Positions 1 to 19,890 of a DNA stretch of 64,000 nucleotides are shown piece by piece; position 1 is the first letter of the stretch, and each line of letters opens with the position of its first letter. Under the pieces are notes generated by a model, which ran no database searches, was not told where the DNA came from, and saw nothing but the letters and a program-made list of their open reading frames with translations. This DNA comes from Escherichia phage momo, in the sequence record MN850580.1; one strand, given 5' to 3'. Both the position numbers and the translations under genes were made by a program.

Positions 1-486
<486 letters not shown>

Positions 487-488
487 TT

Positions 489-929
489 ATGAATACAAAA
501 GCATTAGCAGCAAAGTTTAGTTACGGTGACACTGTATCGCATTCTGAGATGGATACTTTCTTAGGTATTGTGAAGCCAACTTATCAAGGTGACATTGTTA
601 AGTACGAAGATGAAATGAAAGCTTATGCGCTTACACGTCTAAACCGACTTGAGAAGTTTATTGAAAAACTTCTTAAAGAAGAGAAGATTTATCTGGTTGC
701 TTCAATGGGTGTTGGTTATCGTGTGGTTGAACCTAAGCATCAAGCAACTATTGCAAAACGTAAAATGTCTGGTAAGATTGGTCGAGCTTTAAAGCAAGCT
801 ACTCAAGCGATTGAGAATGTGAATACTATGGCACTTAGTCATCAAGAACGTTCACGACTGATTGAACAGCAAAACCATTTAGCTGCTATGAAAGCTAACA
901 TTAATAAGCAACGTAGAAAACCTTTCTAA
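489..929 (+). CDS. hypothetical protein
   Basis: 146-aa ORF starting 3 nt after upstream stop; followed by hairpin+T-run. Confidence 0.5.
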   Translation: MNTKALAAKFSYGDTVSHSEMDTFLGIVKPTYQGDIVKYEDEMKAYALTRLNRLEKFIEKLLKEEKIYLVASMGVGYRVVEPKHQATIAKRKMSGKIGRALKQATQAIENVNTMALSHQERSRLIEQQNHLAAMKANINKQRRKPF

Positions 930-938
930 GTTGACTAG

Positions 939-966
939 GTAGCCTCTTCGGAGGCTCCTTTTTAAA
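939..966 (+). terminator. rho-independent terminator
   Basis: agcctc-ttcg-gaggct hairpin followed by ccttttt. Confidence 0.6.
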
Positions 967-967
967 A

Positions 968-1300
968 GGTCTTTAAACAGGGTCTTTTAATGAGGTAGTA
1001 TACGGTATGGTGGGGTAGGGTGAGGTCTAGTTTGGTAAGGTAGGGTCTGGTATGGGTAGTTAGTCTCAACTACATAAAAATGAGACTTACCTTATTAAAA
1101 GGTCTTTAAAGAGGGTCTTTTAATGAGGTTGAGTTTGGACAGGTGTGGCATGGTCTGGTAATGTATGGTTTGGTGAAGTAATGTACGGTTTGGTGAAGTA
1201 ATGCAAGGTATGGGTAGTTAATCGGAGCTACATTAAAATTCGATTACATCACTTAAGAGTCTTTGAAAGGGTTTTTAAGTGATGTCTGGTCAGGTGTTGT
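968..1300. repeat. non-coding direct-repeat region: three ~27-bp copies of RGTCTTTRAA-N-AGGGTYTTTTAAKTGAKG (968, 1101, 1258), tandem 20-bp units at 1161-1220, G/T-rich ggtNtgg runs
   Basis: Read directly; no ORF of 60 aa or more in this interval. Confidence 0.6.
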
Positions 1301-1395
1301 CCAGTATGGCAAAGCATGGTTCTGTTCGGTAGGGTTTGGTATGGAAGGATGGCAGTAGCCTTATAAAAAATCTGCCAAATAAGCTATAAAATCTG

Positions 1396-1424
1396 TTGAC
1401 AAGTCAGGTGTTATAGCTTATTTT
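1396..1424 (+). promoter_or_regulatory. sigma70-like promoter candidate (TTGACA-N17-TATTTT)
   Basis: -35 TTGACA at 1396-1401, 17-nt spacer, -10-like tatttt; about 45 nt upstream of ATG at 1469. Confidence 0.4.
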
Positions 1425-1468
1425 TATACTCAATGTAATACAAAATTTAATATAACTTTGAGGTCATT

Positions 1469-1852
1469 ATGAAAAAGATTTTATTAGCTGCTGCAATGGT
1501 TATGGCAATAAATTTACCAGTCAATGCAACAGAACTTCCAAATGTTGACTTATCAGGTGTTTCAGAAGACACTTGTCAGATTGTAAAAGGTGTTGCTCTG
1601 GCTAATGGTGAGCTACTTAAACCAATCTCTGAAGAGTCTTTAACAGAGATGACTGATAAGGTAACTGACTATCAGTATCGTGTTCTTGCAGAGTATTTCC
1701 TGCAATCTGCAAATATCAAAGAGAAGCACCATGATGATATTGATGTACAGGCTATGCTTAATCATCGTATCCAGTTTAAAGAAGATTTGATGCAAAAAGC
1801 TATGTATGGTGTTGAGTATTTCTTAGAAAACAGAAGCTGCACAGGTATTTGA
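1469..1852 (+). CDS. secreted/periplasmic protein of unknown function
   Basis: N-terminal signal-peptide-like MKKILLAAAMVMAINLPVNA. Confidence 0.55.
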   Translation: MKKILLAAAMVMAINLPVNATELPNVDLSGVSEDTCQIVKGVALANGELLKPISEESLTEMTDKVTDYQYRVLAEYFLQSANIKEKHHDDIDVQAMLNHRIQFKEDLMQKAMYGVEYFLENRSCTGI

Positions 1853-9363: not shown

Positions 9364-17361
<7,998 letters not shown>

Positions 17362-17362
<1 letters not shown>

Positions 17363-18537: not shown

Positions 18538-19890
18538 TTATTCGTAAGCCACTGTACCTTTCAAGTCAACATCCAAGATAGCCCCTGCTAAGATACCTGC
18601 GAAGGTAACATCTTTCAGGATACGTGCTTTCTTGTCTGCTAAAGCAACTTGAGAGGCTTTAGGAACATTAACTGTGTAAGATGACAGGAAGTTTCTGTTG
18701 ACTGCTCTTTGCAGAGAGGTTTCAATGACTTGACGAATACGGGTAATACCAGTATCATCATAAGTAATCTTACCACCCTTCTGGTTAATTAGCAAGTCTC
18801 TCAGAGAAGTTTTCAGGTCTGATTCTAACCAGTCAACACCACGGACGATATCAATCCATTCCCCACCAGAAGTAATCCCTCTACGAACCACTGGAACACC
18901 ACCATCAAGGTCAATAAAGTTACAGTGACGTACATCTAAAGCAGACTTCTGAATACTTGTCAGAGGTCTCTGATTAGATGGTTGTAGAGAAGCTGCTACA
19001 CCAGTTAGCTGAGCATTACCCCAAGCAATTGAACCTGCATCATATGGAGCACCATAAGCAATGTATGCCATCTCTGGGTAATCTTCTGCTGCTGCGTGAT
19101 GCCACAAGCAAACTGTACGAGTGTACATATTCTTAGCAAGCTGTGCTGGAACATCATTTGCACTGGCTAATTCTGTACCTTGTAGGGCTGTTACATCAGA
19201 GTTAGCCGTAAAGAAGATTTTCTTACGAGCCTGAATCTCAGAAGCCATTGCTAAGACAAACTGTTGAGTTCTGTCTTCTGCTGCAATGAAATACCAGTCA
19301 GTAGAGTAAGCTTCGATAGCTGCCAGAGCAGTTGCTGCTGTATCAGCAGTTGTACTTGCAATATATACAGTCTGTGCTGTGGTTGTTACTTTCACAAAGT
19401 CATTATCACCAGCTTTGGTAATAATCATTGTGGCAGAGCCATTGCTACCAGTTACATTCACAGAAACCTTATCTTTGATTGTTGGGTCAGCTTCAATCTG
19501 TGTTTTAAACTGTTGCAACACTACCTCAGCAGTGTCTGAATCTTGTGCTGTGTACTGGTATGGTTGAGAAATTCCACCGCCAACAGCTACAGTAATTGAG
19601 TAGTCTGTACTTTCGGTAACGGCATCAGGAATTGATACAGTGTACTGCATAGCACGTCTACCAATATAAAGCTGAGTTACTTTAGGAGTCTGACTCCAAA
19701 GTTGTTTAGCAGCCTTATATGCAGCAGACCTCTCATCGAAATCTTCAGCAACTTCAGTTAAGGAAGTGTAACCACGCACTCTTTCTTCAAAGTTATCTGT
19801 TGAAGCTAAGAATAGTGGCAAACCAAAACCTTCTCTTGTAGTTCCTGCGGTGTTCAATGTAATATCTACATTAACAATTGGATTCCACAT
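18538..19890 (-). CDS. tail sheath protein
   Basis: 450 aa, position upstream of tube gene in contractile-tail module. Confidence 0.6.
   Translation of the reverse strand: MWNPIVNVDITLNTAGTTREGFGLPLFLASTDNFEERVRGYTSLTEVAEDFDERSAAYKAAKQLWSQTPKVTQLYIGRRAMQYTVSIPDAVTESTDYSITVAVGGGISQPYQYTAQDSDTAEVVLQQFKTQIEADPTIKDKVSVNVTGSNGSATMIITKAGDNDFVKVTTTAQTVYIASTTADTAATALAAIEAYSTDWYFIAAEDRTQQFVLAMASEIQARKKIFFTANSDVTALQGTELASANDVPAQLAKNMYTRTVCLWHHAAAEDYPEMAYIAYGAPYDAGSIAWGNAQLTGVAASLQPSNQRPLTSIQKSALDVRHCNFIDLDGGVPVVRRGITSGGEWIDIVRGVDWLESDLKTSLRDLLINQKGGKITYDDTGITRIRQVIETSLQRAVNRNFLSSYTVNVPKASQVALADKKARILKDVTFAGILAGAILDVDLKGTVAYE

Follow-up and report, generated by a model that had tools for sequence, protein, structure and literature searches.

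Between the open reading frames at positions 489-929 and 1469-1852 of Escherichia phage momo, no ORF of at least 60 amino acids crosses positions 930-1468, which raises the question of what this region does for the phage. Positions are given in the window, i.e., the whole stretch of 64,000 nucleotides of the sequence record MN850580.1 that was analyzed here. An earlier examination of the letters (the sequence-only reading) had already remarked on this gap of about 500 bp without ORFs, and had proposed that it is a regulator-binding array, an origin-like element, or a small RNA locus. We find that positions 957-1376 are, with high probability, a guide-RNA array, namely the downstream one in a VIPR system of type II that belongs to the SUSP1 clade. 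VIPR (Viral Interference Programmable Repeat) is a CRISPR-like phage weapon first described in a preprint of June 2026, the available text of which presents it as combining Vipr, a small RAMP protein encoded by the phage, with vap, an accessory gene, and with guide RNAs, the vrRNAs (bioRxiv 10.64898/2026.04.26.720920). The array is already explained by this one preprint, i.e., since mid-2026, because it belongs to the clade in which VIPR was characterized.

Other sources gave little information on the region. A scan of positions 700-1700 against Rfam, with E-values up to 10, produced only chance-level matches. Our search of the literature on intergenic repeats of Felixounavirus or on GGU repeats returned nothing covering the region, and one paper on phage gene essentiality in which it is not treated.

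Organization of the locus

The source phage is a Felix O1-like myovirus of the genus Felixounavirus, and the region is 98.8% identical to that of the E. coli phage vB_EcoM_Shy (hereafter Shy). The comparison with related phages that had been suggested shows that the region is conserved: it matches 230 phage records, nearly all of Felixounavirus or close relatives, and at least 80% of the query is covered at one place in 130 of them. The array is made of three tandem modules (957-1087, 1090-1245, and 1246-1376), each composed of a head hairpin, a tract of YNNGG pentamers (respectively, 12, 17, and 12), and a 32-nt tail folding as a pseudoknot (Table 1). The features listed by the sequence-only reading are all present, within 1-3 nt of where it had placed them. 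Its 27-bp direct repeats correspond to a motif of 27-29 nt found without mismatch at 967-995 and 1100-1128; two of the three copies it had counted are thus exact, whereas the third (1259-1277) has diverged. The chance expectation from shuffled sequences is 0.00 and 0.11 matches. The tandem 20-bp unit was recovered by TRF at 1158-1203 (period 20, 2.3 copies, 96% matches), and the promoter-like TTGACA-N17-TATTTT was found again at the end of the region.

Table 1. Features of the vipr-vap1 locus and of its downstream array, in window coordinates
Feature	Positions	Strand	Description
3' part of vipr	1..486	+	C-terminal 161 aa of a 195-aa RAMP-fold protein; N-terminal 34 codons outside the window
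vap1, VIPR accessory gene	489..929	+	146 aa; same position as SUSP1 agp038
Terminator-like GC hairpin after vap1	941..956	+	Consensus scan: 6-bp stem with 4 G-C pairs, then CCTTTTTAAA; also in Shy
Head hairpin 1, type I	957..995	+	Inverted repeat I16; MFE fold; directly 5' of tract 1
vrRNA-1 tract	996..1055	+	12 YNNGG pentamers; NN = AG AC AT GG AG GA CT TT AA AG CT AT
Tail 1, H-type pseudoknot	1056..1087	+	S1 1056-1061/1068-1073; S2 1062-1067/1082-1087; A-rich loop 1074-1081
Head hairpin 2, type I	1090..1128	+	Inverted repeat I7; MFE fold, 18-19-bp stem
vrRNA-2 tract	1129..1213	+	17 pentamers; 20-nt (four-pentamer) tandem duplication at 1158-1203
Tail 2, pseudoknot	1214..1245	+	Compensatory variant in stem 2 (AATCGG/TCGATT)
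Head hairpin 3, type II	1246..1284	+	Inverted repeat I10, 11 nt, 100% complementary; stem sequence differs from type I, complementarity kept
vrRNA-3 tract	1285..1344	+	12 pentamers; NN = CT CA GT CC AT AA AT TC TC AG TT AT
Tail 3, last-unit pseudoknot variant	1345..1376	+	AAGG..GGCAG..CCTT..CTGCC
A/T-rich 19-nt inverted repeat closing the array	1377..1424	+	I1: 89% complementary, 9 nt between arms
Sigma-70-like promoter for the next gene (1469-1852)	1396..1424	+	10/12 consensus positions; overlaps the 1377-1424 inverted repeat

The two genes upstream of the array identify the system. The Vipr fragment encoded in the window is identical to SUSP1 Vipr at 158 of its 161 positions (98%), above the 90% Vipr identity that serves as clade limit in the available preprint text, and vipr, the gene of a small (~20 kDa) minimal RAMP protein, adjoins the array. 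Vap1 is 99-100% identical in 18 Felixounavirus/Suspvirus loci of IMG/VR, including that of SUSP1 (L018, 99%). It matches phrog_5926 and has no significant match in Pfam; its assignment as an accessory, predicted DNA-binding protein is taken from what is available of the preprint (bioRxiv 10.64898/2026.04.26.720920).

The order of the full locus is promoter, two vrRNAs (just outside the window), vipr, vap1, and three vrRNAs. In Shy, two further modules form a second array immediately before the part corresponding to the window, directly behind a near-consensus promoter. The 18 IMG/VR relatives, which were fetched using the protein encoded at 489-929, all have one to three modules on each side of the same two genes (18/18). 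One of them, L018, is exactly the GenBank sequence of SUSP1 (NC_028808.2) over the locus, with one upstream and three downstream modules, and the preprint describes for SUSP1 one vrRNA upstream of vipr and three downstream of vap1 (bioRxiv 10.64898/2026.04.26.720920). We also observed a head-like motif lacking a stem, GAGTCTTCTGTTGAGGGTTCTTTAC, between the last upstream guide and the ribosome-binding site of vipr (Shy, L003 4935-4960); it is present in all relatives.

Composition and length of the pentamer tracts

GGT recurs at spacings of 5 nt, or multiples of 5 nt, in the three tracts (996-1055, 1129-1213, and 1285-1344); in the first, the successive spacings are 5, 5, 5, 5, 10, 5, 5, and 5. 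When both strands were scanned, no other place in the 64-kb window had GGT in at least 5 of 10 consecutive in-phase positions. The G/T-rich runs previously seen behind the direct repeats are therefore real, in the form of strictly phased pentamers, but they are not appendages of the repeats: the pentamer tracts are the functional guide.

Related phages provided 70 distinct tracts from 22 sources, with 9-18 pentamers each, and the length is an exact multiple of 5 nt in 68 of them. Over the 70 tracts, position 1 of the pentamer is T (0.89) or C (0.10), i.e., a pyrimidine at a frequency of 0.99, and G dominates at positions 4 (0.80) and 5 (0.98), whereas positions 2 and 3 are near random, with entropies of 1.92 and 1.88 bits. 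The conservation of these positions and of lengths in multiples of five, when set against the near-random NN, indicates selection on the frame and on the GGY. The NN bases and the copy number vary freely among phages whose flanking proteins are nearly identical. This matches the published description of vrRNAs, in which there are 9-16 YNNGG repeats whose GGY is conserved and whose NN is hypervariable (bioRxiv 10.64898/2026.04.26.720920). The second guide of the array has 17 repeats because of its internal 20-nt duplication, one more than the range given in the available preprint text, and related phages have up to 18. The duplication, which adds four pentamers and keeps the frame, is absent from phage nataliec. 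It may show how the tracts grow, or it may mark a guide that is decaying.

Conserved structures in the tails and heads

The tails fall into four sequence families that all fit a single H-type pseudoknot with an A-rich third loop. Over 29 distinct tails, 94.3% of the cells are paired, a value that drops to 31-41% when the partners are slid by 1-3 columns. Ten of the 12 pairs show changes on both sides, and none of 500 shuffles reached the observed covariation. Across tail types, both partners are altered in each of the six S2 pairs, and tail 3 departs from types a to c in S1 as well as in S2, through paired changes. The preprint describes a conserved 3' tail of about 40 nt in vrRNAs, which is a pseudoknot in the SUSP1 clade (bioRxiv 10.64898/2026.04.26.720920). 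The short hairpin gtctca...tgagac that had been noticed in the region (arms at 1059-1068 and 1081-1090) is stem 2 of this pseudoknot.

The heads form two sequence families with the same pairing: 92-94% of the cells are paired over 49 distinct heads, and 7 of the 13 pairs have changes on both sides. Folding predicts a stem of up to 18 bp, the outer part of which covaries. In its apical part, five pairs do not vary over the 49 heads, and three of these are G.U pairs, which are possible only in RNA of the + strand. Two relatives (L012 3599-3662 and L017 3593-3656) have a 22-nt insertion (AAATTATATTCGAwAGAGTATCTCAT) in the apex of a type II head, which shows that an otherwise invariant apex tolerates an insertion.

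These structures weigh on the idea that the region works as DNA, either as the iterons of a replication origin or as an operator array for a neighbor such as the HTH protein encoded at 2059-2358. In favor of this idea, the region has direct repeats, genes of DNA metabolism (ligase, DHFR, thymidylate synthase) are found nearby, and a promoter-like site stands at the end of the region. However, protein-binding sites should keep their sequence, whereas the stems described above change sequence and keep complementarity. Moreover, the tail pseudoknot is impossible in duplex DNA and the fold is strand-specific through its G.U pairs, both of which argue against an origin or a site bound in double-stranded form. 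Nor would one expect the number of pentamers and the NN bases to vary between phages whose flanking proteins are 99-100% identical, or the NN bases to match a foreign element in a fixed register (see below). We thus regard a DNA-level element as extremely improbable. Two of the three proposals of the sequence-only reading, the origin-like element and the regulator-binding array, are not supported, given the covarying pseudoknot, the strand-specific hairpin, and the complementarity of the NN bases to the foreign element. Its third proposal, a small RNA locus, was right: the region holds three guide RNAs (vrRNAs). The HTH protein was the wrong partner; the partner is the RAMP-fold Vipr, encoded upstream at 1-486.

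Candidate signals for transcription and processing

The T-run of the terminator-like hairpin that follows vap1 (957-966) doubles as the 5' arm of the first head hairpin. A promoter scan detected no promoter-like site between vap1 and the array. Since the downstream array lies behind a terminator-like hairpin and has no such site of its own, its predicted mode of expression is read-through from upstream.

The boxA element bound by NusB/NusE has the consensus GCUCUUUAACAA. The apical GGUCUUUAAAca of the heads resembles it, and the heads might be, besides the guide function of the array, nut- or boxA-like antitermination signals, or Csp-binding sites, allowing read-through past the vap1 terminator and the array. 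The position of the array, behind a terminator-like hairpin and without its own promoter, would suit such a role, as would the invariance of the apical bases in the 49 heads. On the other hand, boxA must be single-stranded and GGUCUUUAAAca is predicted to be paired within the 18-bp stem, no Rfam family was matched, and the vrRNA of the satellite described below has its own promoter and terminator and works without such a hairpin. We therefore consider antitermination by the heads unlikely.

The lengths of the modules point to another role. Tract and tail together span about 95, 120, and 95 nt. These lengths agree with those reported for the SUSP1 RNAs, about 100 nt, only if the 39-nt head is left out, and we therefore read the head as a punctuation or processing signal. 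The hairpin predicted ahead of each tract is most likely such an element between guides. Cleavage at this hairpin, by RNase III or through a Cas6-like activity of Vipr, may define where the guide starts; alternatively, the hairpin may be a nucleation site for the coating of the repeats by Vipr. The satellite, which has a single guide with its own promoter and terminator and no head, fits a role of the head in the processing of multi-guide transcripts. We tentatively propose that in type II VIPR arrays the head forms a functional module in its own right, which the available text of the preprint does not describe; we hold this to be possible rather than probable.

Targets in an E. coli satellite

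A blastn search of the Shy locus against complete E. coli genomes gave matches in 148 chromosomes, confined to one vrRNA-like stretch where no gene is annotated. The stretch belongs to an element of about 11.5 kb inserted at wrbA-ymdF, tonB-yciI, yecE, or dinB-lafU. The element encodes a large serine recombinase, a baseplate protein, a tape-measure protein, and several small proteins, with an HNH endonuclease in most variants. Most variants also have a small invertase-like recombinase, and sometimes a Dam-like methylase or an AP2-domain gene. The element carries its own guide, in the order promoter, array, tail, and terminator, without a head hairpin. The variants extracted (L143 10266-20871, from E. 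coli S40, and L144-L152) have about 1.5-2 kb of unannotated sequence that holds this guide RNA, and a further locus, L142, is a remnant of the satellite riddled with IS. No vipr is annotated in the satellite, which presumably borrows Vipr from the helper phage. The baseplate protein of the satellite is 75% identical to the product of 14358-15131 in the window. On the - strand of the phage, the baseplate (14358-15131) and tape-measure (15155-17362) genes have, respectively, 75% and 30-43% amino acid identity to their satellite counterparts, which makes the phage a plausible helper. This element is the satellite of the preprint, which reports that 18 of the 20 natural targets of the SUSP1 system are on a satellite phage (bioRxiv 10.64898/2026.04.26.720920).

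We scored 68 in-frame guides against ten satellite variants (116 kb) under a rule in which one base of the target is skipped after each NN, omitting the conserved last pentamer. At a threshold of at least 80% NN match, 53 of the 68 guides have a site in the satellites, against one of 68 in 116 kb of flanking chromosome. The difference persists at 90% or more (38 guides in the satellites, none in the flanks) and for perfect matches (6 vs 0). When the skip is set to 0, 2, or 3 bases, when the order of the NN is reversed, or when each NN is swapped, only 0-1 guides reach 90%. The one-base-skip rule is thus re-derived here from the target matches. In the first variant studied in detail, the skipped base falls at codon position 3 in most matches within coding regions.

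The three guides of the window differ in how well they match. The first guide matches 19 of 22 NN positions (86%) at an equivalent unannotated intergenic site in several variants, best in L143 at 19605-19636 (-), where the predicted site is AAGACCAGAGGTAGTGACCTGTTAAACAGGCC (E. coli S40). An exact search of IMG/VR with the target pattern of this guide gave no match. The third guide matches 20 of 22 positions (91%) at the same site of a hypothetical gene of ~185 aa in L145, L147, L149, and L150, and 18 of 22 in L143, L144, and L148; its predicted site is CTACAGAATCCAATGAAAATATCATCAAGCTT (FORC_041). For the second guide, the first eight repeats match at 16 of 16 NN positions in L152 at 9996-10018 (-), inside a satellite gene, which none of 300 shuffles achieved. 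L152 is the most divergent variant, and in this partial site the skipped base is off the codon wobble position. Neither a full-length target nor a match of the 3' half of the second guide, the half with the 20-nt duplication, was found in the ten variants. The partial match ends exactly at the start of the duplicated block. As for self-targets, none reaches 80% NN match in the 64-kb window, beyond which the genome extends for about 25 kb; the best values in the window are 0.73, 0.69, and 0.68.

The matches also bear on the possibility that the RNA is a decoy or sponge without guide function, in which GGU spaced by 5 nt wraps a ring- or filament-forming RNA-binding protein, for titration or for control of downstream translation. 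The geometry of a triplet plus a 2-nt spacer in 11-18 copies does resemble a TRAP site, and the arrays of other phages often end just before a ribosome-binding site. Yet a sponge gives no reason why the NN should match the satellite only with a one-base skip and only in their native order, and the protein that goes with the arrays shares its fold with the RAMP proteins of CRISPR rather than with TRAP. A sponge also predicts that scrambling the NN has no effect, when the opposite is reported for SUSP1, and DNA binding and reprogrammable repression have been shown (bioRxiv 10.64898/2026.04.26.720920, available text). We judge a sponge to be very improbable, and retain the reading of the tracts as guides. 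Several more specific candidates were discarded given the complementarity of the NN to the satellite and the RAMP fold: a TRAP-like ring-protein site, a CsrA/Hfq sponge, and an opposite-strand rut site; G-quadruplex or R-loop origin priming, and clusters of primase or Chi sites. SD-like ribosome landing pads, pairing with the CCA end of tRNA, boxA/nut, and Csp sites were set aside for the same reasons.

Pentamer arrays in other viruses

An exact search of IMG/VR for (GGTNN)6GGT identified at least 120 very diverse viral contigs (L022-L141). Among the matches listed, 45 are heterogeneous arrays and 36 of 120 have a Vipr homologue, as detected with the type II profile in the short stretch fetched. 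The punctuation between guides varies among the matches listed, and includes A/T-rich spacers, GC hairpins, GGCAGGT, or GGTAAGGCTAATGG. In another clade of Vipr (L135 ~739-900 (+), L095 ~1379-1500 (-), and the 3' end of L044 (-)), a single guide follows vipr and its tail resembles a minihelix of tRNA acceptor stem and T-arm (CTCCCTAC...AAGGTTCGATTCCTTGGTAGGGAG). ARAGORN called no tRNA in these three tails. The tRNA-like tail may be a 3' handle or a processing signal; the available text of the preprint does not mention it. The search also catches pentanucleotide microsatellites, i.e., repeats of (GGTCG)n, (GGTTG)n, or GGTTAGGTTAGGTAA, some of them inside long open frames (L024, L033, L049, L052, L099, L100, L107, L116, and others). 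These look like a different phenomenon from vrRNAs.

Proposed mechanism

The following mechanism would account for the locus. Transcription of the + strand would start at the strong promoter that precedes the upstream array and continue through vipr and vap1 into the downstream array. The transcript would then be cut into RNAs of about 100 nt, each made of a pentamer tract and its pseudoknotted tail of ~40 nt, a delimitation that we infer here; in SUSP1, vrRNAs of ~100 nt were observed by sRNA-seq and co-purify with Vipr (bioRxiv 10.64898/2026.04.26.720920). Copies of Vipr would coat the YNNGG repeats, holding the GGY and exposing the two variable bases. The co-purification and the requirement for GGY are shown in the preprint, and the geometry of each repeat is its model (bioRxiv 10.64898/2026.04.26.720920). 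The exposed dinucleotides would pair with double-stranded DNA reading NNxNNx..., with one base skipped per repeat, and transcription of the target would be blocked, as one-base-skip pairing with DNA and reprogrammable repression of transcription have been shown for SUSP1 (bioRxiv 10.64898/2026.04.26.720920). The natural target would be the 11.5-kb E. coli satellite, silenced by the guide complex. Considering that this satellite has baseplate and tape-measure genes related to those of the phage, the most likely role of the array is defense of the phage against a parasite. In this scheme, the steps that would follow transcription are carried over from the 98%-identical SUSP1 system, and the anatomy, the fold, and the target complementarity come from our analysis. 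The basis of this mechanism is one preprint, which has yet to be peer reviewed (bioRxiv 10.64898/2026.04.26.720920).

The phage is thus a natural example of VIPR, with five guides per genome of which three are within the window. The central claims in the available text of the preprint, i.e., the pentamer code, the RAMP fold, the one-base skip, and the targeting of satellites, are reproduced here in a different set of phages from sequence alone. For annotation, ORF-free stretches of this kind in Felix O1-like phages should be labeled vrRNA arrays, and the two flanking "hypothetical proteins" vipr and vap1. More broadly, the VIPR systems represent a recently reported mode of DNA reading by RNA, and have been proposed as an ancestor of CRISPR effector complexes.

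Comparison with known systems

The closest system is the type II VIPR of SUSP1, with which the locus shares the gene order, the YNNGG code, the families of tail pseudoknots, and the downstream array of three guides, as well as the same kind of E. coli satellite targeted under the one-nucleotide-skip rule. The two differ in the NN content of their guides. SUSP1 has one upstream guide, whereas Shy, the close relative of our phage, has two. SUSP1 is a Suspvirus, whereas the phage studied here is a Felixounavirus and has one guide with 17 repeats.

The Class 1 CRISPR systems, with their filaments of Cas7-family RAMP proteins (Cascade, Csm/Cmr), resemble VIPR in several respects: a RAMP-fold protein oligomerizes along a guide RNA, the pairing with the target is periodically interrupted, the variable guide is capped by a conserved structured handle, and the system is used in conflicts between genetic elements. 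However, VIPR lacks identical repeats with acquired spacers and has no cas1/cas2 or other cas genes. The period also differs, 5 nt with 2 pairing bases in VIPR against 6 nt with 5 pairing bases in Class 1 CRISPR, and VIPR, a virus-encoded system, skips one base of the target per repeat. A CRISPR-Cas locus has near-identical repeats of 23-50 nt in alternation with unique spacers, and cas genes that include an adaptation module. The repeats of our locus are only the head, tail, and pentamer modules, and their neighbors are vipr, vap1, and unrelated small ORFs; what is shared with CRISPR-Cas is the RAMP fold only.

Two other systems are comparable at the level of RNA. A TRAP site consists of (G/U)AG triplets with spacers of 2-3 nt, bound by a ring of 11 or 12 TRAP subunits that controls a downstream terminator or ribosome-binding site. 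The sites of the Bacillus trp leader are similar to the vrRNA tracts in having about 11 or more conserved triplets with 2-nt spacers, in single-stranded RNA, bound by repeated protein subunits. The similarity is limited to the period, since the triplet is (G/U)AG rather than GGY and the protein fold is unrelated; the spacers are informative in VIPR and not in TRAP, and VIPR targets DNA whereas TRAP acts by attenuation. Finally, the pseudo-ToxI repeats of phages, which mimic type III antitoxins, are also tandem pseudoknotted non-coding RNAs used in conflict, but the units of ToxI, which are 36 nt long and near-identical, act directly as inhibitors of a toxin protein and have neither a pentamer code nor a nucleic-acid target.
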